Assembly: GCA_963787835.1 (NCBI GenBank)
Contig: CAWBEI010000002.1
Location: forward strand, 864,001 to 928,000
DNA from: Ignavibacteriota bacterium
Lineage (GTDB): Bacteria; Bacteroidota; Ignavibacteria; Palsa-1295
Direction: 5' to 3'
DNA: 64,000 bases
Below the pieces are notes generated by a model that was not told the DNA's origin, ran no database searches, and was given only the letters and a program-made list of their open reading frames with translations. Both the position numbers and the translations under genes were made by a program. Within the stretch, counting starts at the first letter, position 1, and each line of letters starts with the position of its first letter. Below, piece by piece: positions 37,141-64,000 of this stretch.

Positions 37141-37912
37141 ATGTCAAATGAATTCAGCTTCCAAAGCCGCGAGGAAAAGAAGAGCTACGTCGAACGCATG
37201 TTCGGCCAGATCGCCCGGCGATACGATTTTTTCAACCATTTTCTATCTTTAGGATTCGATTATGCTTGGCGGCGTAAGGCCATTGAAGTGTTGCGTGAAC
37301 GTTTAAACTCCCCCTCCTATGAAGCAAAGCGGAATAGGAGGGGGCTGGGGGGTGGTCTCCCGGCGATTCTCGATATTGCCTGCGGGACGGGCGATCTATC
37401 CTTCGAAGCGTTATCACAAATACCCAACGCCCAGCAAACTGGTGTTGACCTTGCCGAGCCGATGCTCGAACTCTTTCGAAAAAAGGCAAATGAAAAGCAT
37501 CTTCAGATTCGAATTGAGCGGGGAGATGTCGAAGCCCTGCAATTTGCCGATAATTCGTTCGATGGAGTAACCATCGGCTTTGGAACCCGTAACTTTACCG
37601 ACTTGCTGACCGCATTCCGAGAAATTCATCGGGTTCTGAGGCCGGGAGGCGTGTTCGTAAATCTTGAACTCGCGCGGCCACGAATGTTTCCGATGAAGCA
37701 GCTCTATCATTTTTATTTCGATATGCTCTTGCCGGCCTTTGCTACGATGTTTTCGGGACACCGTTCGGCGTACCGGTATCTGCCGGATTCGCTTCGCCGG
37801 TTCCCGGACCTGGAAGCGCTGGCAGCCATCATGACGGAAGCTGGGTTCCAGAAAGTGAAATGGGAAACCCGTACGGGCAGGAATTGTTGCTATTCATTCA
37901 GGTGCAAAGTGA
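37141..37912 (+). CDS. ubiE: UbiE/MenG demethylmenaquinone methyltransferase; carries an in-frame palindrome insertion and a one-base frameshift near the 3' end
   Basis: MFGQIARRYDFFNHFLSLG, LDIACGTGD, VTIGFGTRN, AYRYLPDS. The conserved tail GIVAIHSGAK* (TGA 37910-37912) is in a shifted frame. Confidence 0.88.
37308..37356 (+). repeat. Coding palindromic element (CCCCCTCCT family) inside ubiE
   Basis: CTCCCCCTCCTATGAAGCAAAGCGGAATAGGAGGGGGCTGGGGGGTGGT; 44/49 identical to nusB 52146..52194. Confidence 0.92.
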
Positions 37913-37932
37913 TTTTGAGGCTACATAGACTC

Positions 37933-38001
37933 AGTGGACTGTGTGGACTCGATGGACAGCACATCTGTCCATTGAGTCCAAGCTGTCCACTGCCGTCCAC
38001 T
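37933..38001. repeat. Roughly 9-nt periodic TGGAC/GTCCA inverted repeat
   Basis: GTGGACTGTGTGGACTCGATGGAC...GTCCATTGAGTCCAAGCTGTCCACTGCCGTCCAC. Confidence 0.65.
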
Positions 38002-38018
38002 AGAAACAAGCAACCACA

Positions 38019-39611
38019 TTGAAAGAACAAATAAAAGCCCTGTCGAAAGAAACGCTGATCTATGGCGCGAGCACCGTCATCGGGCGGTTCCTGAATTTTC
38101 TGCTTGTTCCGTTCTATGTGAATGTGCTCGACCCCTCGATGTACGGTGTCTCGGCCTCGATGTACACCTACATGAGCTTCTTCAATATTATTTACACGAT
38201 GGGACTGGAATCGGCGTTCTTTCGCTATGCCTCACGTGGCGATAATGAAAAGCGAAGCACTGATGAAGAAAAGAAATTATTCAGTGGCCCATTCCTTTTT
38301 GTGTTATTGTTCGGCGGGTTCCTGAGCTTCATTATTATAATTTTGGCGCCCATTCTTGTCAGCCCAGTCTTTCACGATCCAAAGATCGACATCACGCCGT
38401 GGATCCCGGAATTTATAAGAATACTCCGCATCAGCGCGATCATTATATTGCTTGATAGTCTGAACTTTTTACCATTTGCAGCCTTGCGGATCGACCGGCG
38501 TGCCAAGTGGTTCGGCGTGATACGCCTGACGGGAATTGTTCTTACGCTTTCGCTCAATCTTATCTTTATTGTTGGACTTCACAAAGGCGTGGATGGAATA
38601 TTTGTCGCCAACCTCATCGCGTCCGCAACAATGCTTGCCATGCTTACGCCGACGATCGCGCGACGATTCGAATTCAAGATCTCCCGACCTGTGATGAAGA
38701 AGCTTTTTCCATTCGGGTTAACGAATGTGCCTGCTTCGCTCAGCGCAATGATGGTGCAGGTGATCGACCGGCCTATCGTGCAGGCATTCCTTGGGCTTGC
38801 CATGCTTGGCGTGTATCAGGCGAATTATCGCATGGGAATTATCATGATGGTCTTCGTAAGCTTGTTCGAGTATGCGTGGCGGCCTTTTTTTCTGCGAGAA
38901 TCCCGAACCGATGATAAACGTGCTCGCCAGATCTTCTCGCGGGTGTTCACCTATTTCATGGTTATAGCGTGCATGGGGTTCCTGGTGCTTGCGCTGTTTT
39001 TACCGGACGTGCTTTCCATACATCTGCCTCTCATTCATCACGCTATTTTTCGAAAGAAAGAATATCTTGTAGGGTTGAATATCATTCCCGTTGTTCTGGC
39101 TGCGTATATTTTTCAGGGAATGTACACGAACTTCATTGCGGGAATATATATAAAAGAGTATAATAAGGTACTGCCATTCGTGACGGGCCTTGGCGCGGCA
39201 GTGAATATCGTTACCAATATCATTCTCATTCCAATTATGGGAATTATGGGCGCAGCATTGGCAACACTCTTTGCATACATGGCGATGGCTGGTGCGTTAT
39301 ATACGCAATCCCAGAAGGTCTATTATATCAAATATGACTGGCGCCGCGTGGGGCTTGTCGCGGCGCTCGTGCTGATCGGCTTCTTTGTGGATTATTGCTT
39401 TGTCAGTCCTTCGCTCAATATTGCAGAACGAGTTCTCATTAAACTTGCGTTGCTTGCTGCTATTACGATCATACTCTTCCTAAGTGGATTTTTCTCGAAA
39501 GGGGAGATCGAGACGATACGCGCCATCATCCGGGTTCGACGAACACCGCGATTTAATCCGGAAGCAATGCCGGAACCATTAGAAACAAGCCAGGAGCGGC
39601 AGGAAGGCTAA
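38019..39611 (+). CDS. Wzx/MOP-family oligosaccharide flippase (polysaccharide biosynthesis protein)
   Basis: LIYGASTVIGRFLNFLLVPFY, GLESAFFRY, IDR, AWRPFF, GIMGAALATL; many TM helices. Confidence 0.88.
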   Translation: MKEQIKALSKETLIYGASTVIGRFLNFLLVPFYVNVLDPSMYGVSASMYTYMSFFNIIYTMGLESAFFRYASRGDNEKRSTDEEKKLFSGPFLFVLLFGGFLSFIIIILAPILVSPVFHDPKIDITPWIPEFIRILRISAIIILLDSLNFLPFAALRIDRRAKWFGVIRLTGIVLTLSLNLIFIVGLHKGVDGIFVANLIASATMLAMLTPTIARRFEFKISRPVMKKLFPFGLTNVPASLSAMMVQVIDRPIVQAFLGLAMLGVYQANYRMGIIMMVFVSLFEYAWRPFFLRESRTDDKRARQIFSRVFTYFMVIACMGFLVLALFLPDVLSIHLPLIHHAIFRKKEYLVGLNIIPVVLAAYIFQGMYTNFIAGIYIKEYNKVLPFVTGLGAAVNIVTNIILIPIMGIMGAALATLFAYMAMAGALYTQSQKVYYIKYDWRRVGLVAALVLIGFFVDYCFVSPSLNIAERVLIKLALLAAITIILFLSGFFSKGEIETIRAIIRVRRTPRFNPEAMPEPLETSQERQEG

Positions 39612-39638
39612 GCAGCCCTTAAAATTGACTCTTCAGAC

Positions 39639-40391
39639 TTATTGAAGAATAATATCATGGCTATCGTTGGTATAGGTTACCATGATATAGTTATCCCCAT
39701 TGGTGGCCCGTCCAATTTTATACACGCCCCGTGAAACAGAAATAGTGGCGTGTCCTTTCGGAATTAGCGAGAGACTGGAAGACGGAATAACATACGTACC
39801 CGCTGAACCTGAAATTTCATCCGAATAGCCTTGACCACCTCCGTATGGAATAACTATTAATAATGTCGTTTCAGCACTATTACCGGCATTCCACGTAATA
39901 GTGAGGTTAGAATCCTCGCTTACGTACGAAACATTTGCTGGAGAGGATATAGATAGTGAATCGAATGGCCCTTGAAGCGAATCGCTGATTGCCGGGACGG
40001 AGCCCGAGCCCTGAACATTCCAATATTGACAGGACCCGTTGAGATAAACCGGTGGCCCAGGAAGTAAATAATTCCCGGAATCGATCGACATAGTCACATC
40101 GTTGAATTTTACTGTGCCTGCATTGTACCAGTAGGAGGCGGCGCTATCTCCAAATAATGCCGAAGCATAAGAGACGGTTGGCCAATTGAGGGTATCGGTG
40201 TGCCCACTGATGATCGTATCGAAACCTTCTGCTTTTGCAACCGATGCGATCATGGAGTAATTCACCGGTGTGTCGAGCGTGATGATACCGTAGGTGAACT
40301 TTCCTGTTGCTTTTGTTAATGGACCCTGAGGAGTGGAGCAAGACATGAGCACAAACGGGATACCCATGAGAAGAATAAAAGTCTTAATCAT
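39639..40391 (-). CDS. Hypothetical lipoprotein
   Basis: Lipobox LMSC after a hydrophobic stretch; beta-rich sequence. Confidence 0.7.
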   Translation of the reverse strand: MIKTFILLMGIPFVLMSCSTPQGPLTKATGKFTYGIITLDTPVNYSMIASVAKAEGFDTIISGHTDTLNWPTVSYASALFGDSAASYWYNAGTVKFNDVTMSIDSGNYLLPGPPVYLNGSCQYWNVQGSGSVPAISDSLQGPFDSLSISSPANVSYVSEDSNLTITWNAGNSAETTLLIVIPYGGGQGYSDEISGSAGTYVIPSSSLSLIPKGHATISVSRGVYKIGRATNGDNYIMVTYTNDSHDIILQ

Positions 40392-40658
40392 GATTTTTCG
40401 AAATTAAGAGTTAAAAATGCAAGCATTTTATCTAGAGCCCCGAATAGAACGAGACTAAGTCAATTTTCCACCCACATAAGTCAGTTACAAAACAGGGAAA
40501 AATGTAAATACAATTACTATTAGAATTCCACTAGTGTTCCAGTAAAATAAATTCATACTCGGAACTTGCCCTCATATGGAGTAATCTCCGTTTTTTTGCA
40601 CCAAATGATAATATTTACACTTTCACAATATTTTTGAGTTTGTTGATGAACGGAATAA

Positions 40659-41522
40659 TTATCCTCGAGCAATTCTAGAAATGAGTTTATCAACGTAACT
40701 TTGATGCTCCGGGGAAACCGCTTGTTCGACTTTTTTAAGCTGGGCACCGGTCAGCCCAAAGCGGCGCTCGCGAGTTTGGTATTCGCGAATGGCATCATAC
40801 AGATGTTCACGGCGGAAATCCGGCCAGAGGGTTTTCGTTACATGGATCTCGCTGTAAGCGAGTTCCCACAGCAGGAAATTCGAAAGCCGCATTTCGCCGG
40901 ATGTGCGCACAAGCAGATCGGGATCGGGTATTTCGGCAGTCGTTAGTGCAGCGCGGATGGTTTCTTCGGAAATATCTTCCGGCGAGATCTTTCCACTACG
41001 AACATCGAGCGCAATGGCCTGCATGGCATGGATCAAGTCCCAGCGTCCGGAATAACTTAGTGCAAGCGTGAGGGTTAATCCCTTATTTTTCGATGTGCGC
41101 TCGATGGCGTCCGTTAGTTCTTGCTGCACTTGCTTCGGTAGCAGGCTCGTTTGTCCGATCGTTTTGAGCCGCACCCCATTCTCCAACATTTCCGCCATCT
41201 CATCGCGCAGCATTTTGATGAGAAGTCGAAAGAGCATAGACACTTCGCGCTTCGGCCGTTTCCAATTCTCGGTCGAGAAGGCATAGACCGTTAGGTAGCC
41301 GATACCAAGTTCCCTGGAGGAACGCGTCACATCACGAAGGCTCGCAATGCCGGCTTGGTGCCCGGCGGCGCGCGGCAAACCGCGTTCCTCCGCCCAGCGA
41401 CCGTTGCCATCCATAATGACGGCAATATGTCGCGGCAACTTACCCTGTGCGCGTAGTTCAAGCTGGACGCGCTTGTCGTCTTCCGTTTGCTGGTATTTAT
41501 CCGGGCCGAGGAATTTACGCAT
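40659..41522 (-). CDS. uppS: Undecaprenyl diphosphate synthase (isoprenyl transferase)
   Basis: HIAVIMDGNGRWA, YAFSTENWKRP, RTSGEMRLSNFLLW, ERRFG. Confidence 0.96.
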   Translation of the reverse strand: MRKFLGPDKYQQTEDDKRVQLELRAQGKLPRHIAVIMDGNGRWAEERGLPRAAGHQAGIASLRDVTRSSRELGIGYLTVYAFSTENWKRPKREVSMLFRLLIKMLRDEMAEMLENGVRLKTIGQTSLLPKQVQQELTDAIERTSKNKGLTLTLALSYSGRWDLIHAMQAIALDVRSGKISPEDISEETIRAALTTAEIPDPDLLVRTSGEMRLSNFLLWELAYSEIHVTKTLWPDFRREHLYDAIREYQTRERRFGLTGAQLKKVEQAVSPEHQSYVDKLISRIARG

Positions 41523-42889
41523 TATCCAATCAAAGCCGATGCTTCCGAAATAAGTTCTTCCGCTTCCTCCTTTGTCGGTGCCTCCGCAATGATCCGAATG
41601 ATCGGTTCCGTGTTACTCGCGCGCGCGTGCAGCCATGATTTTTCGAAATCGATGCGAATTCCATCCTCACGATTGATAGATTTCGCTTTGCTTGATAACT
41701 TTTTCTCTATGGCTGAAAGTATTTCTCTAACTTGCTCCTGACTCTTCAACTCGATTTTCGATTTTACGATCTCATACTGTGGTAGCTCTTTTCGTTTCGC
41801 GGAAATGGGGCCGCCGAATTCGGCAAGAGCAGAAAGGCACAGCGCAACACCGACCAACGAATCACGTCCTGTATGCACCATCGGCAGGATCACCCCGCCG
41901 GAGCCTTCGCCGCCAATGATCGCATTCGATTCGAGCATCTTCTTTGCCACGTTGATCTCGCCGACCGCAGTGCGAAGAACTTTCGCGCCATGCTTTTCTG
42001 CAATGTCTTCTATGGCTCGCGTTGTAGAGAGATTAACAACAACGCACTGTCCACGCTGGGAATGCTTCAGCACGTGCTCTGCTGCAAGCACGATCGTATT
42101 TTCTTCAATGAACGGCTCGCCATTTTCCATGATGAGCACAAGCCTGTCTGCATCGGGGTCAACAACAATTCCCAGATCGGCTTTCTCTCGCAATATTGCT
42201 TCTTTCAGAGAGGTGAGATTTTCCGGAACCGGCTCTGGGCGGTGAGGAAATATTCCGGAACCATCGCAATGCAGTTCTATCACATCTGCCAATCCAAGGC
42301 TATGAAGCAATCTTGGATGGATGAACGAGCCGGATGCATTCACGCAATCCAGAACTACTCGAAAATTGCGTTCTGCAATTTTCGCACGATCGACAAATGG
42401 AATATCGAGCACCGCCTGAATATGCTGCTCGACGAAATCCCGGCCATCGATCACCTCACCATACTCTTCCGGTGGCACCGACTGCGTGTCGCCTGAATCA
42501 ACAATATCCCAAAGAACTTTATTTTGCTCCGCATCGAGAAAAAGCCCCGTTTCTGCGATGAACTTCATACCGTTCCACTCGCCGGGGTTATGGCTTGCCG
42601 TGATGATAATGCCACCAACAACTTCCGGTTTCACTTCCGCCGCCATCATGACGGTCGGCGTTGGAACCATACCAAGCGCTAGAACATCGCATCCGCTCGT
42701 TACAAGTGCATCGATCGCGATCTCATAGAAGCGATCGCCACCTAAGCGGCCATCGTACCCGATTGCGAATGTTCCCTTGAAATCGTTATATCGCGCAAAG
42801 CTTGAGGCATAGCGCGCTATGATCTCGGCAGAAAGTCCGTCGGGTGCGCCTACAATACCGCGAAGTCCGGAAATAGAGCGTATTAACAA
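41522..42889 (-). CDS. glmM: Phosphoglucosamine mutase
   Basis: SISGLRG, TASHNP, DPDADR, GGEGSGG, RASNTEP; TTG start preceded by an in-frame stop. Confidence 0.88.
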   Translation of the reverse strand: MLIRSISGLRGIVGAPDGLSAEIIARYASSFARYNDFKGTFAIGYDGRLGGDRFYEIAIDALVTSGCDVLALGMVPTPTVMMAAEVKPEVVGGIIITASHNPGEWNGMKFIAETGLFLDAEQNKVLWDIVDSGDTQSVPPEEYGEVIDGRDFVEQHIQAVLDIPFVDRAKIAERNFRVVLDCVNASGSFIHPRLLHSLGLADVIELHCDGSGIFPHRPEPVPENLTSLKEAILREKADLGIVVDPDADRLVLIMENGEPFIEENTIVLAAEHVLKHSQRGQCVVVNLSTTRAIEDIAEKHGAKVLRTAVGEINVAKKMLESNAIIGGEGSGGVILPMVHTGRDSLVGVALCLSALAEFGGPISAKRKELPQYEIVKSKIELKSQEQVREILSAIEKKLSSKAKSINREDGIRIDFEKSWLHARASNTEPIIRIIAEAPTKEEAEELISEASALIG

Positions 42890-42965
42890 TTATGAATGAT
42901 GAATTATGAATGATGAAAGGTGAAAACCAATTTCCTTCATAATTCATCATTCATAATTCATAATT
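42888..42965. repeat. Heptamer-periodic (TATGAAT/GATGAAT) inverted repeat filling the floA-glmM gap
   Basis: AATTATGAATGATGAATTATGAATGATGAA...TTCATAATTCATCATTCATAATTCATAATT. Confidence 0.8.
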
Positions 42966-42970
42966 TTTTC

Positions 42971-43987
42971 TCACGAACTCGTTTGTGTCGCCCCGGCCGC
43001 TGGCGTGGAACCCGAATCCGGAGCGCCGCCTTCGGCGATGGATTTACGCATGTTCGTATCGGACTGCAAATTTTGCAGATTGTAGTAATCCAGCACGCCG
43101 AGATGTCCGGAACGGAATGCTTCGGCGATCGCCATCGGAATTTGGGATTCCGCTTCGACAAGCTTGGCTCGCATTTCCTGCACACGAGCTTTCATTTCCT
43201 GCTCCGTTGCGACGGCGGCGGCACGGCGTTCTTCGGCTTTCGCTCGTGCGATCTTCAATTCTGCTTCAGCCTGATCGCTTTGAAGTTTGGCGCCGATATT
43301 ATCGCCGATGAAGACGTCGGCAATATCGATGGAAAGAATTTCGAAAGCCGTTCCTGCATCCAATCCTTTGTCAAGAACTACTTTCGAAATGCGGTCGGGA
43401 CGCTCCAGCACTTCCTTGTGCGATTCGGATGTACCGATCGTCGTAACGATACCCTCACCAACGCGCGCTAAGATCGTCGCTTCACCGGCACCGCCGACAA
43501 GCCGCTCGATATTGGCACGGATCGTAACGCGCGCTACGACACGCACTTGAATTCCATTTTTCGCCACTGCGGGAACCTGTGGCGTTTCGATCACTTTCGG
43601 TGTGACCGATAGCTTGACTGCTTCGAGCACATCGCGGCCAGCAAGATCGATCGCGGCAGCGCGGTTGAAATCCAGCTCGATATTTGCTTTTGCCGCGCTG
43701 ATGAGCGCGTTGACCACGCGTGGAACGTTACCGCCTGCCAGGTAATGTGCTTCCAGCTTCGGCAGATCGACCGGAATTCCGGCTTTCAGCGCCGTGATCT
43801 TCGATCGCACGATCACATCCGGTGGAACTTTGCGAAGGCGCATCCCGACCAAGTCCGAAAAGATCCGAACGTGAACGCCCGACGATAATGCCGTGATCCA
43901 AAGACCAAGCGGAATAAAATAGAGGAAGAGTATGAGGAAAAATAATATTCCTACGACTACGACTATCGGGATTGCTGCTGCGCCCAT
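42971..43987 (-). CDS. floA: Flotillin-like protein FloA (YqfA/UPF0365)
   Basis: [47 protein letters not shown]. Confidence 0.93.
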
Positions 43988-44415: not shown

Positions 44416-44428
44416 GTGTATTCTAAAG

Positions 44429-44494
44429 CGTAGGTCGGAGCTTCCAGCCCGACCTTCCCAGCAGTAAGTGTCGGGCTGGAAGCTCCGACCTACG
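44429..44494. repeat. GTAG-type REP doublet, family C
   Basis: CGTAGGTCGGAGCTTCCAGCCCGAC and its exact 25-bp reverse complement. Confidence 0.88.
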
Positions 44495-44504: not shown

Positions 44505-45461
44505 CTACTGCTTTGGTTTTACAAAGAACGAGACCGTGTCTATCGCGGCGCTGCCGAAGATGCCAATACCGCCATTGATGTGATTGAGCGAGGGTTGAAA
44601 ATCCGTGCCGCCGGAGAGCTGCCGCTGATAATCTGCGAAATTCGTATCGATCGCGTAGAATGTCACAAGGTTTGGGCCATACCAGACGAAAAATCGTGAG
44701 GTGATCGCGATAGCGGGTCCGGTCGAGATCTGCGAGTAGCGGGTCGTCTCGACGGCACTATCGCCGCCAACATGGATTCTCCCTACATTGGTATCGAGCG
44801 CGGTAACGCTGAGGAGATATTCACGCGAGGGATTATCAACAGGTCCGGCCGTTGCGAGAAAAGCAAATGCGGCGAGATTGTTGGTATCGAGCGTCAACGT
44901 CTGGCCTCGAATGGAATCGGCAAACGATGCAAGATGGATCGGCATGGGAACGGTTGTCGTCGCCGTTGCGAAATGTGTTCCACCCGTCTGTTCATCCGGC
45001 GCGATAACAGTGAGGTTGTAGGTCTGCCCACCCTGCACGATAAGCTTGCTCGCGGGAAGGTAATAGCGTCCTTTTAAACTTGCGGGCAACAGCGTATCGG
45101 CCACACCATTATTAGTAACGATAACGGTTGCGCCAGTGATGGCATACTCAAGATCGTTGAAGGTATCGCCGAACGGCGTAGTGCGGTGCAGTACGATGGA
45201 ATCGATCGGGTGATTTGCGAACAGGAATGTATTGATGACCAATTGCTCGGAATATTGGCTTTCGATAGGTTGATCGCAGCCGGCCCAGATCGCACCTAAT
45301 ATTGTCATTGCGAGGAGAAACTTCAATGGCGATAGCCATTGAAGTTTCGACGAAGCAATCTCTTGCGTTCGACCAAGGGATTGCTTCGTCGAACATTCCG
45401 AGGCGTTCGCCTCGGAATGTTCTCCTCGCAATGACAATCTTAAGTTAGTCCTTTTCTTCAT
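44505..45461 (-). CDS. DUF4249-like lipoprotein partner of the TonB-dependent receptor; signal peptide interrupted in frame by a family A repeat
   Basis: Lipobox WAGC; C-terminal NHINGGIGIFGS; ATG lies 1 nt after the receptor stop. Confidence 0.8.
   Translation of the reverse strand: MKKRTNLRLSLRGEHSEANASECSTKQSLGRTQEIASSKLQWLSPLKFLLAMTILGAIWAGCDQPIESQYSEQLVINTFLFANHPIDSIVLHRTTPFGDTFNDLEYAITGATVIVTNNGVADTLLPASLKGRYYLPASKLIVQGGQTYNLTVIAPDEQTGGTHFATATTTVPMPIHLASFADSIRGQTLTLDTNNLAAFAFLATAGPVDNPSREYLLSVTALDTNVGRIHVGGDSAVETTRYSQISTGPAIAITSRFFVWYGPNLVTFYAIDTNFADYQRQLSGGTDFQPSLNHINGGIGIFGSAAIDTVSFFVKPKQ
45301..45438. repeat. Cruciform palindromic element, family A, copy 2 (coding)
   Basis: ATTGTCATTGCGAGGAGA...TCTCCTCGCAATGACAAT; 138 bp, a multiple of 3. 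Confidence 0.9.
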
Positions 45462-47848: not shown

Positions 47849-47885
47849 TTCCTCTCCCCACCATGGGGAGAGGTTAGGTGAGGGG
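47849..47885. repeat. CCTCTCCCC-type palindromic element, family F, overlapping the suhB stop
   Basis: CCTCTCCCCACCATGGGGAGAGGTTAGGTGAGGGG; matches 49641..49674. Confidence 0.85.
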
Positions 47886-48737
47886 GTGATCTTTCCTTAC
47901 TTCCTGAATGATCCCCTCGATCATCGCATGATGCAAGCCGTTCGTGGCAATGATGGATTTGCGGTAGATATTATAGTCGCTGCCATCGTAATGTGTCACC
48001 CGGCCGCCGGCTTCGCGGACCATGAGCTGACCTGCCGACGTATCCCACGGTGAAAGTCCGATCTCCCAGAATCCCTCGAAGCGTCCAGCAGCAACATACG
48101 CCAAGTCGAGCGCGGCGCTGCCTAACCGGCGAATGAGCATTCCCTTATGAAGAAAATTCGTGAATTGCTCGATGACGGACTCCGGATTTTCATCGACATT
48201 ATATGGGAACCCAGTTACGAACAGTCCCTGCTTGTATTTGGCTTGCTTCGAAACCTGCATTCGTGTGCCATTGAGATACGCTCCCTGGCCGCGACGTACT
48301 GAAAACATTTCGTTCAAATTCGGATTGTAGATCACTCCGCATTCCACGATGCCATCTACTTCAACCCCGACGGATACGCACCATATTGGCACGCCGTGCG
48401 CAAAATTGACGGTGCCATCGATGGGATCGATGATCCACCTTACCGTAGGAACCACCCCCCGCATCGTCGGCGATGCTCCCCCCCCTTCTTTAGGAGGGGG
48501 AGTAGTATCACTAGCGCCTAATTCTTCGCCGAGAAACACATGATCGGGATAGTGGGCAAGCACTGTATCGCGTATCGTATGCTCGTTGCGAGAATCGATC
48601 TGCGTGACGATATCCATTTCATTGGTCTTCGTTGAGATCTGTAGGTCGCTGACTATGGCTCGGTGCGCATAGTCGCCAGCTTCGCGGGCAACTTGTTTGG
48701 CAAGGTCGAAGTAGGATTGAATTGAGTCGTTAGCCAT
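47874..48737 (-). CDS. suhB: Inositol monophosphatase family protein SuhB with in-frame palindrome insertion
   Basis: GEE, WIIDPIDGTVNF, RRLGSAALDL, LSPWDTSAG. Confidence 0.9.
   Translation of the reverse strand: MANDSIQSYFDLAKQVAREAGDYAHRAIVSDLQISTKTNEMDIVTQIDSRNEHTIRDTVLAHYPDHVFLGEELGASDTTPPPKEGGGASPTMRGVVPTVRWIIDPIDGTVNFAHGVPIWCVSVGVEVDGIVECGVIYNPNLNEMFSVRRGQGAYLNGTRMQVSKQAKYKQGLFVTGFPYNVDENPESVIEQFTNFLHKGMLIRRLGSAALDLAYVAAGRFEGFWEIGLSPWDTSAGQLMVREAGGRVTHYDGSDYNIYRKSIIATNGLHHAMIEGIIQEVRKDHPLT
48451..48502 (-). repeat. Coding palindromic element (CCCCCTCCT family) inside suhB
   Basis: Minus strand CTCCCCCTCCTAAAGAAGGGGGGG..AGCATCGCCGACGATGCGGGGGGTGGT, read TPPPKEGGGASPTMRGVV. Confidence 0.88.
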
Positions 48738-48951: not shown

Positions 48952-49587
48952 ATGAAGATCATGCTTTCCCTCCATTCACTGCTCCTCGGCGGAATCACCG
49001 GCTACCTTATCGGCTCGATACCGTCGGCTTATCTCATCACAAAATGGAAAGCTGGGATCGATCTTCGCGAGAAGGGTTCGAAAAATATTGGTGCAAGAAA
49101 TGCCTTCGAGGTAACAGGGGATAGATCCATCGGTACGATCGTGCTGGTGATGGATCTGCTAAAGGGACTGCTTCCGGTTCTGGCCTTTGAAATGGCGGGA
49201 TCATCTGACGCGCTTGCTATCCTCATCCCCGCACTCATACTCGGACATTGCTATCCCGTTTGGCTGCGCTTTCACGGTGGAAGAGGATTGGCGACGATTG
49301 CCGGAGCATTGTTGCTTATCGACCCGGTAGCGATCGTCTTCTGGCTTTTGGTCTATTGGATTACTAACCGGATCAGCCATCATGTTCATTTTGCGACCAT
49401 CATGGCGTGTGGTGCTGCATTATTGCTTCTTATAGTATTACCTGTTCCAATATTGGAGAAAACAATATGGACGATCAATGGGCTGAAGTTCGCGGGGAGG
49501 CAATTCCAGGTGTCCGTTGGTGTTGCGGTGCTTATCATCCATTCAAGACATATCGAGCCATTTCTTGAATTGGTGAAAGGCAAATGA
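48952..49587 (+). CDS. plsY: Glycerol-3-phosphate acyltransferase PlsY
   Basis: GYLIGSIP, GSKNIGARN, DLLKG, GHCYPVWLRFHGGRG. Confidence 0.9.
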   Translation: MKIMLSLHSLLLGGITGYLIGSIPSAYLITKWKAGIDLREKGSKNIGARNAFEVTGDRSIGTIVLVMDLLKGLLPVLAFEMAGSSDALAILIPALILGHCYPVWLRFHGGRGLATIAGALLLIDPVAIVFWLLVYWITNRISHHVHFATIMACGAALLLLIVLPVPILEKTIWTINGLKFAGRQFQVSVGVAVLIIHSRHIEPFLELVKGK

Positions 49588-49676
49588 CCCCTCACCCGGC
49601 CTCTCCCCCAAGGGGGAGAGGAGAATAGAATGAAAATATTCCTCTCCCCCTTGGGGGAGAGGTTAGGTGAGGGGTC
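49586..49676. repeat. CCTCTCCCC-type REPIN doublet, family F
   Basis: GACCCCTCACCCGGCCTCTCCCCCAAGGGGGAGAGG ... CCTCTCCCCCTTGGGGGAGAGGTTAGGTGAGGGGTC. Confidence 0.9.
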
Positions 49677-49730
49677 GTTTTAAATTCGAAACACATCCTT
49701 ACAAATTTCGTTATTTTTCATCCTGACTGT

Positions 49731-51751: not shown

Positions 51752-52585
51752 ATGACCAAATCGAACCACGTCCCCATCGATCCAAACGCCCCATCCGAAC
51801 CACGCGACATCCTCGAACCGCACGAGCACGTCGATGCGCTGGAACCGCCCGTCATTGAACCGGATGAGATCTTCGAGAACGATCCCGTCCGCGACCGTAC
51901 CCTTCCCAAGCGCCGCCTCGCGCGTGAGCGCGTCATGCAGATACTCTATGCCTTCGACCTCGGCGGCGGCGAGATCGATACCCTCTTTTGGGAACTCGCC
52001 GAACGCGAACTCCGCGAAGCCGACGAACGCGCCGGCATTATTCCCCCTCCTATAGAAGGAGGGGGTCAGGGGGTGGTTCCCAATTCTTTTAATTCTCCCC
52101 CTCCTACGCAGCGAAGCGGAGTAGGAGGCATTACTTCCCAAGGTGCTCCCCCTCCTGCGCAGCGAAGCGGAGTAGGAGGGGGCTGGGGGGTGGTTTCCCC
52201 AGACGATGAACCCAACGATGGCGCGCTCGAATTCGCCCGCGCACTCACACGCGCGCTCACGCAACACCGCGAGGAGATCAACCAGATCATTACCGAAAAG
52301 CTGCAGCGGTGGGAGTTCAGCCGCGTTGCGCTCATCGACCGCATTCTCATTCAGATGGGCATTGCGGAACTGCTCTACTTCCCGGACATCCCGCCGAAAG
52401 CTTCCATTAACGAGCTGATCGAGATCGCTAAGGATTATTCCACCGAGGAGAGCGGGAAGTTTATCAATGGCATCCTGCACGCGATCATGACGCACCTCAC
52501 CGATACCGGCAAAATAAAAAAATCCGGACGCGGGCTGATGGAAGAAAGCCAGAACGGCTACCGCCCCGCAAAACGCAAGCACTAA
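51752..52585 (+). CDS. nusB: Transcription antitermination factor NusB with a roughly 50-aa repeat-derived insertion
   Basis: RRLARERVMQILY, IDRILIQMG, INELIEIAKDYS, KFINGIL. Confidence 0.92.
   Translation: MTKSNHVPIDPNAPSEPRDILEPHEHVDALEPPVIEPDEIFENDPVRDRTLPKRRLARERVMQILYAFDLGGGEIDTLFWELAERELREADERAGIIPPPIEGGGQGVVPNSFNSPPPTQRSGVGGITSQGAPPPAQRSGVGGGWGVVSPDDEPNDGALEFARALTRALTQHREEINQIITEKLQRWEFSRVALIDRILIQMGIAELLYFPDIPPKASINELIEIAKDYSTEESGKFINGILHAIMTHLTDTGKIKKSGRGLMEESQNGYRPAKRKH
52042..52194 (+). repeat. Three tandem coding palindromic elements (CCCCCTCCT family) inside nusB
   Basis: Copies at 52042..52077, 52095..52128 (truncated) and 52146..52194. Confidence 0.93.
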
Positions 52586-57392: not shown

Positions 57393-57430
57393 AGCGCGTA
57401 GGTCGAGCGTCCTCGCTCGAGATGGCAGTC
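57393..57430 (+). repeat. GTAG-type REP, family D, copy 2
   Basis: AGCGCGTAGGTCGAGCGTCCTCGCTCGAGATGGCAGTC. Confidence 0.85.
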
Positions 57431-57541
57431 TGTATAAAAGGAAGTATCTGCCACGATCACAAATTCATCGAAAGAGAATTCCACGAGGAAATATGCAGCT
57501 TCCTAAGATCTTCTGGTAAGGGTAGTTCCTGCCTGGTGTCC

Positions 57542-57625
57542 GGTGTACAACGGATTTTAACCCGTTGCTCGCTACTCGCTCAGAATCCTGCACCGGGTTG
57601 AAACCCGGTGTACACACGAAGGTGG
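57542..57625. repeat. REP-like doublet, family J
   Basis: GTGTACAACGGATTTTAACCCGTTG ... CACCGGGTTGAAACCCGGTGTACAC. Confidence 0.7.
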
Positions 57626-57653
57626 TCGGTGTACACCTATTTTTTAGAAATAC

Positions 57654-57682
57654 TTGACATTGTTACTATAAGTCCGTATATT
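57654..57682 (+). promoter_or_regulatory. Near-consensus sigma70 promoter
   Basis: TTGACA-17 nt-TATATT. Confidence 0.65.
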
Positions 57683-57687
57683 GCAAT

Positions 57688-57719
57688 TGCTTTGATGGGC
57701 ACCTGTATCAATTAAGAAG
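57688..57719 (+). repeat. Direct repeat, right copy; runs into a heptamer arm (TAAGAAG TAAGAAT TAATAAT)
   Basis: TGCTTTGATGGGCACCTGTATCAATTAAGAAG. Confidence 0.8.
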
Positions 57720-57866
57720 TAAGAATTAATAATTAAGAGTGGGTGCTCGGTGGCTCATTGACAACTACGGCGGTGGCTTTCGTTATGAACGAGTTCTGTG
57801 TGATGGCAGAATTATGAATACTTGTTGGAACAAATGGCGAAATTGGCTCACATTCGAGGGTCCGCC

Positions 57867-57995
57867 ATGAGAGATCGGGAACTCACAAGAAAGAAAAACG
57901 GCACCTATTTCTGGAAGAATATCTTTATTGTTCTTCTCTTCAGCTTTGGAGTCACGTTGCTGAATTTCGAACGCGCCTGTTTGCAGGTTCGTTGA
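57867..57995 (+). CDS. Possible 42-aa single-TM peptide
   Basis: GAGG SD; MRDRELTRKKNGTYFWKNIFIVLLFSFGVTLLNFERACLQVR*; below the ORF-track cutoff. Confidence 0.3.
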   Translation: MRDRELTRKKNGTYFWKNIFIVLLFSFGVTLLNFERACLQVR

Positions 57996-58017
57996 GCAAG
58001 CCAAGTATTCTGAAAAA

Positions 58018-59292
58018 GTGAGCATGTCTAATTCATCGTCGCCGATGGTTTTATTTCCGAAAAAAGTCATTGCCGCGTGGGGCAGTTTCGATTTTGCGAT
58101 GAGCGCGTTTACGGGCATCATGGTCACGTTCGTGTTCCCGATCTACTTTCGGAGCGTGATCGTCACCAATGGCCACGGGGATTCCATTTGGGGCTTCACG
58201 CTTTCGGCCTCGATGCTGCTGGTGGCTATTTCGTCGCCGCTCTTAGGCGCGATGGCGGATGTGCTGCGCAATAAGAAGGCGTTCTTGGGAATTTTTACAT
58301 CGGTCACGATCGCCTGCACCGTGCTGCTGTATTTTATGGGGCCGGGGATGGTAATGATCGCCGCTGCCCTGTTCATCATTGCGAACGTCGGCTACGAAGG
58401 CGGCACCGTTTTTTACGATGCATTCCTTCCCGAGATCACGACGCCGCAAACGTTCGGGCGTATCTCGGGCATTGGCTATGCCTGCGGCTATGCCGGCTCG
58501 CTGACGATCCTGATCGTCAACCTGCCCTTTTTCGATACGGCGCCGAAATTTACGTTCCTCGTCGCGGCGGCGTTCTATGCTATCTTTGCGCTGCCCCTGT
58601 TCTTTATCGTTCCCGAGCAGCGCCGGAACGGGCATCTGTCGTTTCCGGTGATCGTTCGGCGGGGGTTCGGCCAGCTTACAACAACGGTGCGGCATATTCG
58701 GCAGTATAAGGATGTCACCCGGTTCCTGATGGCGTTCTTTATTTACAACGACGCGCTGCTTACCGTGATCCTGTTTGCGGGAATCTTTGCGAACCAAACG
58801 CTGCATTTTAAGATGATGCAGCTTGCGCTGTGGTTCGGCATGATCCAGATCATCGCGCTCGCCGGCTCGGTTCTCTTTGGGCGATTTGCGGATAAGCACG
58901 GGCCGAAGCTGACGATCACGATCACGCTCATTATCTGGATCGCGGTGGTGACCGGAGCGTATTTCACGACCACGGCAGCGGAGTTCTATGTGGTCGGCGC
59001 GGTAGCAGGAATTTGTTTGGGTTCGAGCCAGGCAAGTTCCCGAGCATTCATGGCACTGCTCACGCCGCCGGAACACGCTGCCGAATTCTTCGGATTTTAC
59101 GATGGGTTTTGCGGCAAGGCAAGTGCGGTTATTGGGCCGATCGTATTCGGGGTGCTATCGGATCTATTTGGCAGTCAACGCCCGGCGATATGGGCGCTGG
59201 CATTGTTCTTTATTATCGGGTTACTCTTGCTTCGCAGAGTGAATGAGAAGCGGGCTGTCCAGGATGAGGTGCTATTGGAGACCACTTCGTAG
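58018..59292 (+). CDS. MFS transporter (UMF1/ATG22-like family)
   Basis: AWGSFDFAMS, SPLLGAMAD, VFYDAFLPEI, GRISGIGY, QASSRA, AEFFGFY; about 12 TM. Confidence 0.9.
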   Translation: MSMSNSSSPMVLFPKKVIAAWGSFDFAMSAFTGIMVTFVFPIYFRSVIVTNGHGDSIWGFTLSASMLLVAISSPLLGAMADVLRNKKAFLGIFTSVTIACTVLLYFMGPGMVMIAAALFIIANVGYEGGTVFYDAFLPEITTPQTFGRISGIGYACGYAGSLTILIVNLPFFDTAPKFTFLVAAAFYAIFALPLFFIVPEQRRNGHLSFPVIVRRGFGQLTTTVRHIRQYKDVTRFLMAFFIYNDALLTVILFAGIFANQTLHFKMMQLALWFGMIQIIALAGSVLFGRFADKHGPKLTITITLIIWIAVVTGAYFTTTAAEFYVVGAVAGICLGSSQASSRAFMALLTPPEHAAEFFGFYDGFCGKASAVIGPIVFGVLSDLFGSQRPAIWALALFFIIGLLLLRRVNEKRAVQDEVLLETTS

Positions 59293-59340
59293 GGACGTGC
59301 GCATATCGATTTGGGAAGGACGTGCGCAGCACGTCCCTAC
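59289..59340. repeat. GTAG-type REP doublet, family E, whose ends are the stop codons of both flanking genes
   Basis: GTAGGGACGTGC...GCACGTCCCTAC. Confidence 0.9.
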
Positions 59341-60587
59341 ATGTTGAGACGATGTCTCAGTATTTCTAATGCCGCAGCCGCAGCACGTTCGCGGTTTAGC
59401 TTTCGGCCGAAATCGCCCTGAAGTTTTTTGGCGGTCGGCTTTGAGCCTTTTTCCGCAAAAGCAATCCAGATAGTTCCTACGGGTTTTTCTTCTGTTCCGC
59501 CATCGGGCCCAGCAGTACCGGTGACGCCCAGGGCATAATCCGTTCCCAATCGTTCGCAAGCGCCTTCGGCCATTTCGCGGGCGGTTTCTTCGCTGACGGC
59601 GCCGAACTCGTCCAGCGTTTTCTGTTTCACTCCCAACTGGCTCACTTTCACATCATTATCATACGCCACGATGGAACCGCGAAAGACCATGCTAGCGCCG
59701 GGCACGTCTGTTATCATGGTGGCGATCAGACCGCCGGTACAGCTCTCGGCGGTTGAGATGGTTTTGTGCTGCTGTGTCAGCAATTTCACGATACTCGACT
59801 CGAGCGCTTCTTCATCCGCACCATAGATATACTTCCCAGCTCGTTCGCGAAGAATGTTCTCGACACGGGCGACCTCACGCTCTACTTTTTTTCGGTCTTT
59901 TCCATGGCTCGATATGCGCAAGCGAACTCCTCGCGGCCTCGGTAAAAATGCGAGCGTTGTATGCTCGCCGAGAAATGCTTGAGGATCTCCGATCTTTTCC
60001 GCAAGCATGGATTCGCCGATGCCGGTCGTCAGCAACGTTCGGTGCAGGATTACTTCGAGATGCTTTTTATAGGTTTGCCGCAAAAATGGAAGCAGGTGGC
60101 TTTCAACAATTCCCTCCATTTCCTGCGGTACGCCGGGAAGGATGACGAAGGTTTTGTTATTTTCGAATTGGAGCAAACCTGGTGCAGTGCCACGGTTGTT
60201 CGGGAATGCTTTAAAACCTACTGGAACCATTGCCTGCCCCAAATTCGCTTCCGGCATATTGGCATATCCAAGCCGCGCGAAGCGATCGCGAACGGCTTTC
60301 AGCGTTGGTTTATGCAGCGCCATCTTTGCGCGAAAGAATTTTGCAACGGCCGCTTTGGAAATGTCATCATGCGTGGGTCCAAGTCCACCGGTTACGATCA
60401 CAACATCGGATTCCTTCCATGCCCGCCGAAATGCGGCAAGGATAGATTTCAGGTCATCGCCGACCGTGGTTTCGCGCACAGCGGGAATGCCAAGCTCGGA
60501 AAGTTCACGTCCAAGGTAAGCGGCATTCGTATTGGTGACCTGCCCAATAAGTAATTCGTCGCCAATGGTAATGATCTCTGCGCGCAT
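59337..60587 (-). CDS. cinA: Competence/damage-inducible protein CinA (MoCF-like plus PncC NMN deamidase)
   Basis: IGDELLIG, TGGLGPTHDD, LPGVPQEM, TAESCTGG, GVTGTAGP. Confidence 0.95.
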   Translation of the reverse strand: MRAEIITIGDELLIGQVTNTNAAYLGRELSELGIPAVRETTVGDDLKSILAAFRRAWKESDVVIVTGGLGPTHDDISKAAVAKFFRAKMALHKPTLKAVRDRFARLGYANMPEANLGQAMVPVGFKAFPNNRGTAPGLLQFENNKTFVILPGVPQEMEGIVESHLLPFLRQTYKKHLEVILHRTLLTTGIGESMLAEKIGDPQAFLGEHTTLAFLPRPRGVRLRISSHGKDRKKVEREVARVENILRERAGKYIYGADEEALESSIVKLLTQQHKTISTAESCTGGLIATMITDVPGASMVFRGSIVAYDNDVKVSQLGVKQKTLDEFGAVSEETAREMAEGACERLGTDYALGVTGTAGPDGGTEEKPVGTIWIAFAEKGSKPTAKKLQGDFGRKLNRERAAAAALEILRHRLNM

Positions 60588-61147
60588 TAATGCAAGAACG
60601 AGAATAGGTACATCACAAGATGCGCTGAAAAATTTGCATACAGACCGGCAACGACGTCATCCAGCATGATGCCCGTTCCGCCGTGCATCTTTTCGAAATA
60701 TCGGGCTGGAGGGGTCTTTATAATATCAAAAAAACGGAAAAAGAGAAAGGCGAGAATTACAAAAGTAAGATTCCCGGCATACATAAGCGTACTGAGAGCT
60801 ACCCATTGCCCGAGCACTTCATCGATAACAACGATGCCGGGATCTTGCAATTTCAGGGCACGCTCGACCACACCGCCTGACCAAATTCCCGCGACCAACA
60901 CCACAAGGCAGGCGATCGAAAGTACATCGATGTTCTGAAGTGCAGGGATAAAATAATATAGTAGCGCGGCAGCAAAGCTACCAACAGTTCCAGAGCTAAC
61001 AGGTGAAAGACCGGTGTAAAAGAACGTGCCAACAAGAAGCGCGAGTGGAGGAACTGTGTTTAATTCTTGCGGATGCTTCGCCCAAAGCCGCGAGCGCGCT
61101 TTTGTGTACCAATGGAATCGGGACTCTTCCGGCGTGAACTCGCTCAT
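60587..61147 (-). CDS. pgpA: Phosphatidylglycerophosphatase A
   Basis: SGTVGS, DPGIVVIDEVLGQ, FRFFDIIK, GIMLDDVVAG. Confidence 0.93.
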   Translation of the reverse strand: MSEFTPEESRFHWYTKARSRLWAKHPQELNTVPPLALLVGTFFYTGLSPVSSGTVGSFAAALLYYFIPALQNIDVLSIACLVVLVAGIWSGGVVERALKLQDPGIVVIDEVLGQWVALSTLMYAGNLTFVILAFLFFRFFDIIKTPPARYFEKMHGGTGIMLDDVVAGLYANFSAHLVMYLFSFLH

Positions 61148-61154
61148 ATTTTAA

Positions 61155-61775
61155 TCACACGGTTTCCTGACCCGCTCGACCAAATAAATATCGCGCGCGC
61201 ATCCTGCGAAGCACTGGCCAATTATCGTAACCATACGAGACCGCTGAAGCGAACGTAAGCAGGGTGATAATACCCATCAGCCAGAACGAAACATCGGATA
61301 CGAAATACGCATGGGCCATCTTGGCGAGGCCAATTCCAAAATGACCACCCTGCGCAAACAGCTCGACAAGCAAAAGAATGATAAAGCCCATTTGTGCAAA
61401 GGTCTTTACCTTCCCGAAATAACTCGTCTTTACATGAAGGCCGATGTTGTCCGCAAATCTTCGCAGCAATGTTAAAAAAATATCCCGGAACACCACGATG
61501 ATAACCATCCACCAGGGAATGATGGACATCCATGCGAAGGCCACGAATGCCGAACCAGTCAGTAACTTATCGGCAAGCGGATCGAGGAAGGCGCCAAGAT
61601 CGGAGACAAGCCCCATCTTCCTCGCCATGTGGCCATCCCACCAATCGCTAATGGCCGCAACAGCAAAAACGAACCCTGCCCAGCCAATTTCGGGCGGATG
61701 CACAATGGCGATCAGCACGAAAAAGACCGGCACAAGCACGATCCGAAGCACCGTAAGCTGTGTGGGCAGTTTCAT
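61155..61775 (-). CDS. pgsA: CDP-diacylglycerol--glycerol-3-phosphate 3-phosphatidyltransferase
   Basis: LPTQLTVLRI, DWWDGHMAR...GAFLDPLADK, GKVKT; ATG 61775 preferred. Confidence 0.92.
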   Translation of the reverse strand: MKLPTQLTVLRIVLVPVFFVLIAIVHPPEIGWAGFVFAVAAISDWWDGHMARKMGLVSDLGAFLDPLADKLLTGSAFVAFAWMSIIPWWMVIIVVFRDIFLTLLRRFADNIGLHVKTSYFGKVKTFAQMGFIILLLVELFAQGGHFGIGLAKMAHAYFVSDVSFWLMGIITLLTFASAVSYGYDNWPVLRRMRARYLFGRAGQETV

Positions 61776-61814
61776 TTTAGACCCAAACAAGGGTTTAGGA
61801 GAGAGGGTTTTGCT

Positions 61815-63116
61815 CTAAATTCTGGCTGTTTTTCTCAATCGTGCAACGAAGAATCCATCACATCCCTGCAGATCCGGCCGTGTTCGAAGGGTTTCTTCGA
61901 GTGTAAACTCGGGACGGACACGTGTGAACCACTTTAGTTGGTCTTCACCTTCTTCTTTCAGCAGGGAGCACGTCGCATAAAGCAGTGTACCGCCAGGTTT
62001 AACGAACCGGGCGTTCTCTTCCAGAATGACCTGCTGTTTTGCCAGCAATTCGCTCAGCATCTGCTCCGTTAACACCCACTTAATTCCCGGATTTCTGCGA
62101 AGTGTACCCGTGCCAGTGCACGGTACATCGAGCAGAACGAGATCGAACCATTCGGTCTTATCTTCGCCGAGCATTTTCTCTCTCTGCGTTGGGAGTACAA
62201 TTCTGATATTCTGTGCGCCACTTCGACGCGAGCGAATTTTTAGTTCTTCGAGCTTGCGAGCTTCCGCATCGGTTGCGTAGATCTCGCCATGATTTTTCAT
62301 CAGTGCGGCAAGATGAAGCGTTTTGCCACCGGCTCCGGCACAGGCGTCGAGTGCCTTTATTGCGGTCTTTCGAATCTGCGCGAATGGCACCACAAGCTGA
62401 CTGGCTTCGTCCTGCACTTCGAACAATCCGTGCCGGAACGATTCAAGACTGAGCGCACTGATGCGCCTGCCGATCGTAAGTGCATCTGGTGCAAGCGTGG
62501 AAAATGTTCCTTCGAATCCTTCATTTCGAAGTTCTTCCTGCAAAACTTCGCGCGTCGTAAGAAGAGTATTAGCACGGAGCGAGATCGGAGCTTCCTCGTT
62601 GAGAGAGGCAAGAATCGGTTCCAATGAATCCATACCGTATTCGGCACCGATGCGCAACGCGCACCAACTTGGGAATGAATACAGAACGGCCAGCCGCTCG
62701 ACGAACGAGAGTTTTTCGAGGCGGGCACGCTCCAACTCCGCGTCAGCAAGTCGCTCGATGGCGGGTAGTTCAAACGAAATATCGATGTCTGCAAACGTAG
62801 CTTGCACTTCGACTAAGCCAGTGCCACGCATAAGCATAAGCGCAGCGACCATTTGAGCCTCCGGTATTGGGCTGTCAGAGGCCTGATCGTCTGGAATTTC
62901 TTCACCCAGAAATGCGTCCGCAACGCGCGCTTCTAAGCGGCGATAATTTTTTATCGCGGCATAATAATATTCCGCGATGCTTCGGCGGTCCTTTGCACCG
63001 AGATATTTTCGCTCCACAAAAAACCGGCGTAGGATGGCATCCGCAGGAATGGCAGGATTCACACGAAAGATCGATAACACTTCCGTTACATGACCGGCAA
63101 TACTGGAAAGGCGCAT
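61815..63116 (-). CDS. RsmB/NOP family RNA m5C methyltransferase
   Basis: VQDEASQL, DACAGAGGK, DVPCTGTG, YATCS, DGFF. Confidence 0.9.
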   Translation of the reverse strand: MRLSSIAGHVTEVLSIFRVNPAIPADAILRRFFVERKYLGAKDRRSIAEYYYAAIKNYRRLEARVADAFLGEEIPDDQASDSPIPEAQMVAALMLMRGTGLVEVQATFADIDISFELPAIERLADAELERARLEKLSFVERLAVLYSFPSWCALRIGAEYGMDSLEPILASLNEEAPISLRANTLLTTREVLQEELRNEGFEGTFSTLAPDALTIGRRISALSLESFRHGLFEVQDEASQLVVPFAQIRKTAIKALDACAGAGGKTLHLAALMKNHGEIYATDAEARKLEELKIRSRRSGAQNIRIVLPTQREKMLGEDKTEWFDLVLLDVPCTGTGTLRRNPGIKWVLTEQMLSELLAKQQVILEENARFVKPGGTLLYATCSLLKEEGEDQLKWFTRVRPEFTLEETLRTRPDLQGCDGFFVARLRKTARI

Positions 63117-64000
63117 TAATGTATCTCCGGTCGATGAACGAGTGGTAAACGTGGATGAGCGGCCAGCGAAAGATCGTTAACGTTCCCACGCGTGAGTTTG
63201 AGGGCCCCAAGCATAGCGATCATAGCTGCGTTATCCGTTGAAAAAAGTGGACGCGGCACGAAAAAGCGCATTCCGCGATGGATACACTCCGTTTTAAATC
63301 GCTCGCGTAGTTCCGAATTGGCGCTAACACCGCCAACGCAGACAATGTCCGTGATACCGTTCGCTTCGGCAGCTCGGAGGGTTTTTGTTACGAGAATATC
63401 GACCATTGCTCGCTGAAAGGAAGCGGCAATGTCACGCACATCATAACCACCCCCTACCCCCTCCTTCTTAAGGTGGGGGTTGTTGTTCTCCCCCTCCTTA
63501 AGAAGGAGGGGGTTGGGGGGTGGTTGTTTTTTTAACCAATATAGCACTGACGTTTTAATACCACTAAAGCTAAAATCGTAATTATCTTCATTCATCAATG
63601 CGCGTGGGAATTTAACGAAGGTTGGATTGCCCTCGCGTGCAAGCTTATCTATTTCTGGGCCGGCAGGATAATCTAGGCCCAGCATTTTGCCGACTTTATC
63701 GAAGGCCTCGCCGGCTGCATCGTCTAACGTCTCTCCGAGAAATTGATAACTGCCGACATCGTTCACAAGTATGAGAAGCGTGTGGCCACCCGATACGACC
63801 AATGTGACAAATGGTACTTCCGGTTTATCCTTTTCTAATAATGCACTGAAAATATGTGCTTCAATATGATGAATACCGATGAGTGGAATATTAAGTCCCA
63901 TCGACAACCCCTTTGCAAAATTCAGTCCGACGAGTAAGGAACCCATCAATCCTGGCGCATGGGTGACAGCCACTGCGTCCAATCCCTCCAGTGTGATGTT
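63116..64000 (-). CDS. tsaD: tRNA N6-threonylcarbamoyltransferase TsaD (5' part outside the window) with in-frame palindrome insertion
   Basis: HHIEAH, VSGGHT, DDAAGEAFDK, FSFSGIKT, GGVSAN, TDNAAMI; frame open to 64000. Confidence 0.95.
   Translation of the reverse strand, partial: NITLEGLDAVAVTHAPGLMGSLLVGLNFAKGLSMGLNIPLIGIHHIEAHIFSALLEKDKPEVPFVTLVVSGGHTLLILVNDVGSYQFLGETLDDAAGEAFDKVGKMLGLDYPAGPEIDKLAREGNPTFVKFPRALMNEDNYDFSFSGIKTSVLYWLKKQPPPNPLLLKEGENNNPHLKKEGVGGGYDVRDIAASFQRAMVDILVTKTLRAAEANGITDIVCVGGVSANSELRERFKTECIHRGMRFFVPRPLFSTDNAAMIAMLGALKLTRGNVNDLSLAAHPRLPLVHRPEIH
63446..63524. repeat. Inverted doublet of the coding palindromic element (CCCCCTCCT family) inside tsaD
   Basis: ACCACCCCCTACCCCCTCCTTCTTAAGGTGGGGG-8nt-CTCCCCCTCCTTAAGAAGGAGGGGGTTGGGGGGTGGT. 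Confidence 0.93.

Follow-up and report, generated by a model that had tools for sequence, protein, structure and literature searches.

A short G/C-rich repeat, which we call family A, is inserted in frame seven times within four core genes (ubiE, suhB, nusB and tsaD) in a window of 64,000 nucleotides (nt), positions 864,001 to 928,000 of contig CAWBEI010000002.1, from the 3.57-Mb genome of an Ignavibacteriota bacterium (GCA_963787835.1, G000 hereafter). We favour, with moderate confidence, the explanation that family A is a BoxC-like repeat spread by a DUF559 nuclease, that copies keeping the reading frame persist as tolerated, translated, flexible loops, and that such loops then become larger neutral targets for further repeats. 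We infer both the mobilisation by DUF559 and the translation of the inserts, the enzymatic step coming from association and from analogy with repetitive extragenic palindromic (REP) sequences and their REP-associated tyrosine transposases (RAYTs), and with the Ssn/NTS system, as described in PMC3733652 and PMC11893778. A sequence-only reading of the window had previously noted the insertions; that the element has a BoxC-like, triplex-type architecture, and that different repeat families share sites, are additions to it.

All seven copies lie where that reading had placed them, in genes matching the NCBIfam models for UbiE/MenG, inositol monophosphatase (SuhB), NusB and TsaD. The ubiE/menG gene (37135..37912, + strand) holds a long-loop copy at 37308..37357 (+), which is read in the sense direction and encodes SPSYEAKRNRRGLGGG. 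A UbiE homologue with 74% identity carries the name Candidatus Kapaibacterium in its source, so that the lineage is probably Kapabacteria. In suhB (47874..48737, −), of the inositol monophosphatase family, a short-loop copy at 48451..48502 (−, sense relative to the gene) has a 16-bp mini-palindrome from a separate repeat family (family 15) in its second loop (48461..48476, no strand assigned). Three copies are found in nusB (51752..52585, +), the first with a short loop (52041..52078, +), the second with a long loop but truncated and without a tail (52095..52128, +) and the third with a long loop (52146..52195, +); at this site the gene exceeds its orthologue in the sister genome G002 by 141 nt. 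The tsaD gene (63116..64000, −), which extends beyond the window to G000:C2:928216, carries an inverted pair, member 1 being antisense to the gene (63488..63525, +) and member 2 sense (63445..63480, −). The truncation of the middle nusB copy, the nested palindrome of the suhB copy and the tsaD pair of one antisense and one sense member are corrections to the earlier reading. Searched with Rfam at gathering thresholds, the whole window yielded only a tRNA.

As had been proposed, conservation is of the DNA and not of the peptide. The ubiE copy and the third nusB copy are identical at 44 of 49 positions and are read in different frames, and between them the 36 frame-scored copies of the genome are read in each of the six frames (sense in 17 cases, antisense in 19), their open frames being partly circular evidence since the copies were found in open reading frames (ORFs).

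The core hairpin occurs 51 times in G000, compared with 0–3 times in five shuffles. Two profiles gave 64 matches at ≥14 bits, and we defined as strong copies those that contain the core motif and score ≥20 bits (n = 51). Strong copies were coding in 38 cases (34 in genes of our own gene caller and four placed by hand), spread over about 31 genes, which bears out the expectation that many genes are affected; other host proteins include XerC, Ppx, PcrA/UvrD, EgtB, transketolase, CoaBC, RarA, AccC and GatA. The remaining 13 were intergenic, and a single DUF559 gene has six of these beside it or no more than 1 kb away, so that the claim that copies always lie inside genes is true of the window and not of the genome. 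By one criterion, 35 of the 64 family A matches were coding, versus 95 of 1,433 copies of 32 other families, G000 holding at least 32 other small repeat families in all. The exact family A pattern was present in all 14 other genomes of the genus (1–71 copies), in five of 10 others of the family (1–3 copies) and in one of 16 of the class.

Two further placements in G000 were observed. Three secreted-type proteins (G000:C2:326434, C4:140297 and C4:143226) have one insert in common in their C-terminal domain, which probably spread through copying of that domain, and a family A copy at G000:C2:394682-394717 falls in what is likely the signal peptide of a lipoprotein, within its N-terminal part.

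Shared insert sites across the genus

Nine genes, chosen for having the element in G000, were aligned across 12–15 genomes of the genus. Length variation of at least five residues was limited to one block in seven of the genes and to three blocks in pcrA and xerC, the variable blocks of nusB and gatA being wide. The ubiE site is occupied in different genomes by family A in forward, reverse or paired form, by a BoxC-like copy, by two REP-type repeats, by a heptamer array, or by nothing, and more distant UbiE relatives mostly have a near-constant 21-residue segment, with a few repeat-like exceptions. We assigned site states by eye in genomes that are related and thus not independent, excluding unclear or uncovered rows, and used a concatenated genus tree in which six of 12 inner branches are well supported. 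On this basis, ubiE was filled in 11 of 13 scored genomes with a minimum of 7 changes, suhB in 7 of 14 (6 changes), tsaD in 8 of 14 (6), rarA in 11 of 13 (5), gatA in 6 of 11 (5), pcrA in 3 of 10 (3), accC in 4 of 11 (2) and nusB in 2 of 13 (2); xerC was left out of this scoring.

We also made an unselected comparison of 559 conserved orthologue pairs between G000 and G002, detecting repeats with blastn-short at 782 variable sites. A repeat was present at 16 sites in G000 only, at 14 in G002 only, at nine as the same repeat in both and at eight as different repeats, although one or two of these eight are doubtful and 5 of 800 control windows were also flagged. The presence of different repeats in the two species at one site has an odds ratio of 26 (p = 6e-8), a value that does not tell targeting apart from sites being unequally tolerant. 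Among indels of at least five residues between the two species, 34 of 113 involve a multi-copy repeat. The xerC gene (G000:C2:371627-372700) combines a heptamer array with family A, and its first site holds family A reversed in G002; in G013, rarA (L290) has a 69-residue segment produced by a family A variant repeated in tandem as six partial copies. Mini-palindromes of 15–18 bp also insert alone into G000 and G002 genes as 5–7 residues (for example at G000:C2:519960, 625088, 927116, 1055133 and 1716459), as well as into family A loops. These few predicted loops, which hold other, unrelated repeats in sister species, are therefore likely to act as recurrent landing pads for selfish DNA.

Under the favoured explanation, a loop once lengthened would be a larger neutral target, on which other families land and from which old ones are deleted, giving the observed turnover. 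Alternatively, targeting may be active, with resident hairpins attracting new repeats or being replaced by them through repeat-into-repeat insertion or conversion. We regard this as possible but on the unlikely side; it is compatible with spread by DUF559. Mini-palindromes nested in the family A copies of suhB, rarA and the tsaD of G002 would fit it, as would the different families found in G000 and G002 at ubiE, gatA, hutI, a phage portal gene and others. However, an expanded neutral target predicts the same pattern, and pcrA and xerC gained inserts at two or three separate loops.

Repeat layout and the DUF559 gene

Family A copies are 36–70 bp long and consist of a pyrimidine arm, a loop, a purine arm, a short loop, and a tail that mirrors the purine arm with T in place of A. 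In G000, 44 of 48 copies match the mirror at eight or more of nine positions. DUF559 genes are accompanied by 109 distinct hairpins, of which 83 end in a 9-nt mirror tail without mismatch and 12 in a perfect direct repeat, compared with a mean of 15.7 and a maximum of 27 when tails were swapped (500 trials); the hairpins are related sequences, so this covariation count does not amount to a probability. The sequence pattern suggests that a three-strand geometry is maintained, beyond the hairpin alone. For single copies, ViennaRNA gives the hairpin alone (−10.9 to −15.6 kcal/mol), and in the flank tally the C run is preceded on its 5′ side by (A/T)ACT and the tail reads GGTGGT. We looked for target-site duplications in 41 copies and found the longest flank repeat to be no longer than in random pairings, except in single cases. 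Thus, of the two signs of insertion that had been suggested for checking, orthologues with empty sites were found and target-site duplications were not.

The sequence-only reading had also suggested looking for a DUF559-like nuclease gene flanked by the element. Such a gene exists at G000:C2:1483372-1483737, where five family A copies, three upstream and two downstream, bracket a gene for a 121-residue protein whose sole Pfam match is DUF559 (PF04480, E 3e-29) and which matches PDB entry 3hrl. An Atlas search returned DUF559 clusters only. DUF559 has been grouped with Vsr among the PD-(D/E)XK nucleases (PMC3424549). On C5 there is another DUF559 gene, bracketed by a palindrome that is related but not the same. 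In 64 of 71 GTDB relatives of the DUF559 gene, a C-tract hairpin lies no more than 350 bp away, in 35 of them on both sides, and the family A profile was matched in 32 of the 71. Hairpin matches numbered 124 in 48 kb near DUF559 genes versus 7 in 100 kb far from them, an enrichment of about 37-fold. PF04480 is present in 12 of 15 genus genomes, and on a tree of 26 genus proteins (leaving out one of 27 matches, a weak one in a long protein without repeats) the repeat label requires 12 changes, against a possible minimum of 10 and a shuffled mean of 18.6, with none of 200 shuffles as low; near-copies contribute to this clustering of repeat variants by nuclease clade.

The DUF559 cassette occupies different places in different species. 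The gene upstream of it has orthologues in G002, G006 and G014 that are not followed by a cassette, and no clean empty site was identified because the neighbourhood is rearranged. At L303 in G001, the cassette is flanked by a direct duplication of ~80 bp over a gene start, the upstream copy ending in a stop; judging by its N-terminal motif, this gene is presumably dnaK. Other cassettes (L295, L297, L305, L306, L309, L314 and L315) lie between two genes, in frame with the downstream gene, or at the end of a long ORF, contexts that, judging by motifs, are presumably the space between cas1 and cas2, an RNase H-like or membrane-protein gene, and a helicase-like ORF.

These associations can be read as follows. 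The DUF559 protein would recognise the folded single strand, as a hairpin and probably a class II triplex, and would cut at or near it, in the manner of HUH RAYTs and GIY-YIG Ssn nucleases; repair of the cuts would then copy single or paired repeats to new places. In a more far-reaching and tentative form, DUF559 proteins would join HUH RAYTs and GIY-YIG Ssn nucleases as the third class of enzymes associated with repeats. They would read and copy intrastrand DNA triplexes in a clade-specific manner, and in this genus several such systems would in turn overwrite a small set of loops of essential proteins and account for ~30% of the larger indels between sister species.

The repeat may instead spread without an enzyme of its own or by means of another, such as a RAYT or host recombination and slippage at structures formed by G/C runs, with DUF559 genes as passengers or users. 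G000 has ten Y1_Tnp matches, one intergenic family A copy lies ~250 bp from a RAYT gene near recA, and three genus genomes hold copies without a DUF559 match; the six-fold tandem amplification in rarA of G013 resembles slippage, and TM loci have been tied to local instability without a mobile gene (PMC4666352). On the other hand, repeat variants follow DUF559 clades and are strongly enriched near these genes, and the RAYT flanks, among those listed, carry other repeats, none of the 64 family A matches of G000 bracketing any of the ten PF01797 matches. On these grounds RAYTs were rejected as the cognate partner, and we consider spread without DUF559 unlikely.

Host proteins and tolerance of the inserts

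According to the favoured explanation, selection would purge copies that break the frame or fall in structured regions, leaving a few loops per protein. Between G000 and G002 (about 1.6 of the 3.7 Mb of G002 were used), 20 of 22 coding site pairs differ in length by multiples of three, one exception being a paralogue and the other a site with several other repeats in G002, whereas neither of the two truly intergenic pairs does so. Inserts lie between conserved blocks, as had been noted, and they fall in predicted coil. In the NusB model, the core has a predicted local distance difference test (pLDDT) score above 90 and the insert is a low-confidence coil between two helices, with the NusB fold kept (TMt 0.83). 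TsaD aligns with solved structures up to residue 231 and resumes at 257–261, and the SuhB insert extends a segment that is already variable; a PDB search with UbiE gave no match at E 1e-25. Many events do not simply add residues: host codons are often replaced at filled sites, for instance in pcrA and accC.

The idea that the element serves protein-loop innovation found no evidence. We consider it quite unlikely that the inserts are functional, selected either because the peptide forms a new loop or because a hairpin in the mRNA adjusts core-gene expression. Some sites are filled in most species (11 of 13 for both ubiE and rarA), what is likely a lipoprotein signal peptide has a copy in its N-terminal region, and family A is coding far more often than other families. 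Yet a scarcity of stop codons (211 of 306 family A frames are open) and Pro/Gly-rich products may explain why so many copies are coding, many orthologues have an empty site, and distant UbiE relatives retain their near-constant segment. Moreover, peptide, frame, orientation, length and even repeat family vary at a single site, which led us to reject selection at the peptide level. Since peptides at one site alternate among unrelated sequences, the inserts fit tolerated loops, and the inserted peptides are probably near-neutral.

It is very improbable that the inserts are assembly artefacts, are removed at the RNA level or mark dead genes: the assembly does have indel errors and four host genes are broken as assembled, but inserts occur at the same sites in independent assemblies (tsaD in G002 and G006), their flanks remain 85–90% identical to orthologues, and length differences in multiples of three would be unneeded under RNA-level removal, which we rejected for this reason. 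One contig of a public DNA sequencing run, possibly related to the source sample, spans the suhB insert with one difference; among the runs listed, none held RNA. The earlier reading had named intact copies elsewhere as a sign of pseudogenes; ubiE, suhB and tsaD each have a single match in the genome at the thresholds used, and nusB has one full-length match.

In ubiE as assembled, an extra base in the G run at 37875-37877, ~520 nt 3′ of the insert, makes the ORF continue to 38022, and the last ~11 residues differ from orthologues. This is likely to be an assembly error (frameshift-like breaks were found in 6 of 399 control genes); we looked in public sequencing runs for contigs covering this position and found none.

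Several points weigh against spread by DUF559 into tolerated loops. The nine aligned genes were selected for the element, their site states were assigned by eye in related, non-independent genomes, and the odds ratio may reflect unequal tolerance of sites. PF04480 was not found in three of the 14 other genus genomes with copies (G003, G004 and G013), nor in the E. coli control genome, a BoxC carrier. The DUF559 link is an association, and the repeats could be used by the nuclease gene but moved by something else; for TM repeats, PMC4666352 reports no mobile gene associated with them and finds that stable triplexes in vivo are not supported. In the assembly, four host genes (ubiE, coaBC, mazG and one for an M1 peptidase) are broken, each by differences of one base or by a stop that lies within G/C runs or close to them, and such broken insert-bearing genes exceed the background of 6 in 399, although sequencing errors in G/C runs are the likely cause. 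Finally, the TsaD model is of low confidence over residues 164–266, around the insert, and the placement of the TsaD loop therefore depends on the PDB alignment.

Other repeats are present in the window. A closer BoxC-like variant, distinct from family A, is intergenic and occurs as an inverted pair at 49582-49680 and as a single copy near 47870-47900. At 45294-45445, the repeat family with the most copies in the genome is represented by a palindrome of 150 bp, which lies in the 5′ end of a long ORF (44505-45461), the true start of which is probably downstream of the palindrome. Further intergenic families, including heptamer arrays and GTAG-type palindromes, are found at 12882-12994, 20548-20622, 26680-26842, 33675-33869, 37082-37107, 42882-42968 and 44429-44494.

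Significance and comparison with known systems

Since at least six nucleases of ~120 residues are each naturally paired with a repeat variant of their own, the question of what mobilises BoxC/TM repeats becomes testable, and the DUF559 reading, if true, would give this long-orphan motif a mobiliser. A PD-(D/E)XK enzyme of ~120 residues specific for a sequence or structure could be a tool. The genus also provides a natural map of loops that repeatedly accept 10–70 foreign residues, and in practice such inserts disturb alignments and annotation. The listings returned by literature searches contained no paper that ties DUF559 to BoxC or to palindromes at its flanks, nor one about repeats of this kind in Kapabacteria.

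BoxC repeats, also called PIT or TM, have a 9-nt C-rich stem, a loop, a G-rich stem, a short loop and then another G-rich stem (PMC4666352), the same order as in family A and the layout of a class II, purine-motif triplex; no function or mobiliser is assigned to them in that source. The TM_ECO pattern given there matches G000 once, outside family A copies, and an exact TM_ECO match adjoins a DUF559 gene in G005 (L296). In E. coli MG1655, every TM_ECO copy lies between genes and none was found with mobile elements (PMC4666352), whereas family A is coding in most strong copies and brackets a nuclease gene. Judged by its sequence, family A thus works like BoxC in layout but is no member of TM_ECO.

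Classical miniature inverted-repeat transposable elements have a target-site duplication, which was not seen above the control level, single cases apart, in the 41 family A copies analysed. Family A resembles REP/REPIN sequences with their RAYTs, including the intragenic GTAG/CGTC REPs of O. terrae, in its short palindrome with a tail on one side, inverted doublets, flanking of a partner gene, lack of target duplication and partly intragenic location (PMC3733652), but it has no GTAG/CGTC tag and its partner is PF04480 instead of an HUH tyrosine transposase (PMC3733652, PMC3424549). As in Ssn/NTS, a hairpin repeat flanks the gene of its own small single-domain nuclease, enzyme and repeat form many co-evolving pairs, and an origin as a domesticated element is possible; Ssn, however, is a GIY-YIG enzyme with demonstrated cleavage and its NTS rarely lies in genes (2%; PMC11893778), whereas the family A partner is a DUF559 protein with putative cleavage activity.

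Rickettsia palindromic elements (RPEs) are likewise palindromic repeats found in frame in unrelated housekeeping genes with a high coding share (PMC10969869, PMC3733652), and family A too is inserted in frame in unrelated, intact genes. As described in these sources, RPEs are set apart by a length of about 150 bp, a conserved encoded peptide and, in some, a CGTC tag, compared with 36–70 bp, six frames and a triplex layout in family A, and we found no description there of several families replacing each other at one site. In-frame palindromes thus have precedents in Rickettsia (PMC10969869) and O. terrae (PMC3733652). To these, this locus adds its lineage, a large proportion of coding copies, pairs of repeat and nuclease that are specific to a clade, mirror covariation, and the turnover of unrelated repeats at the same loops.

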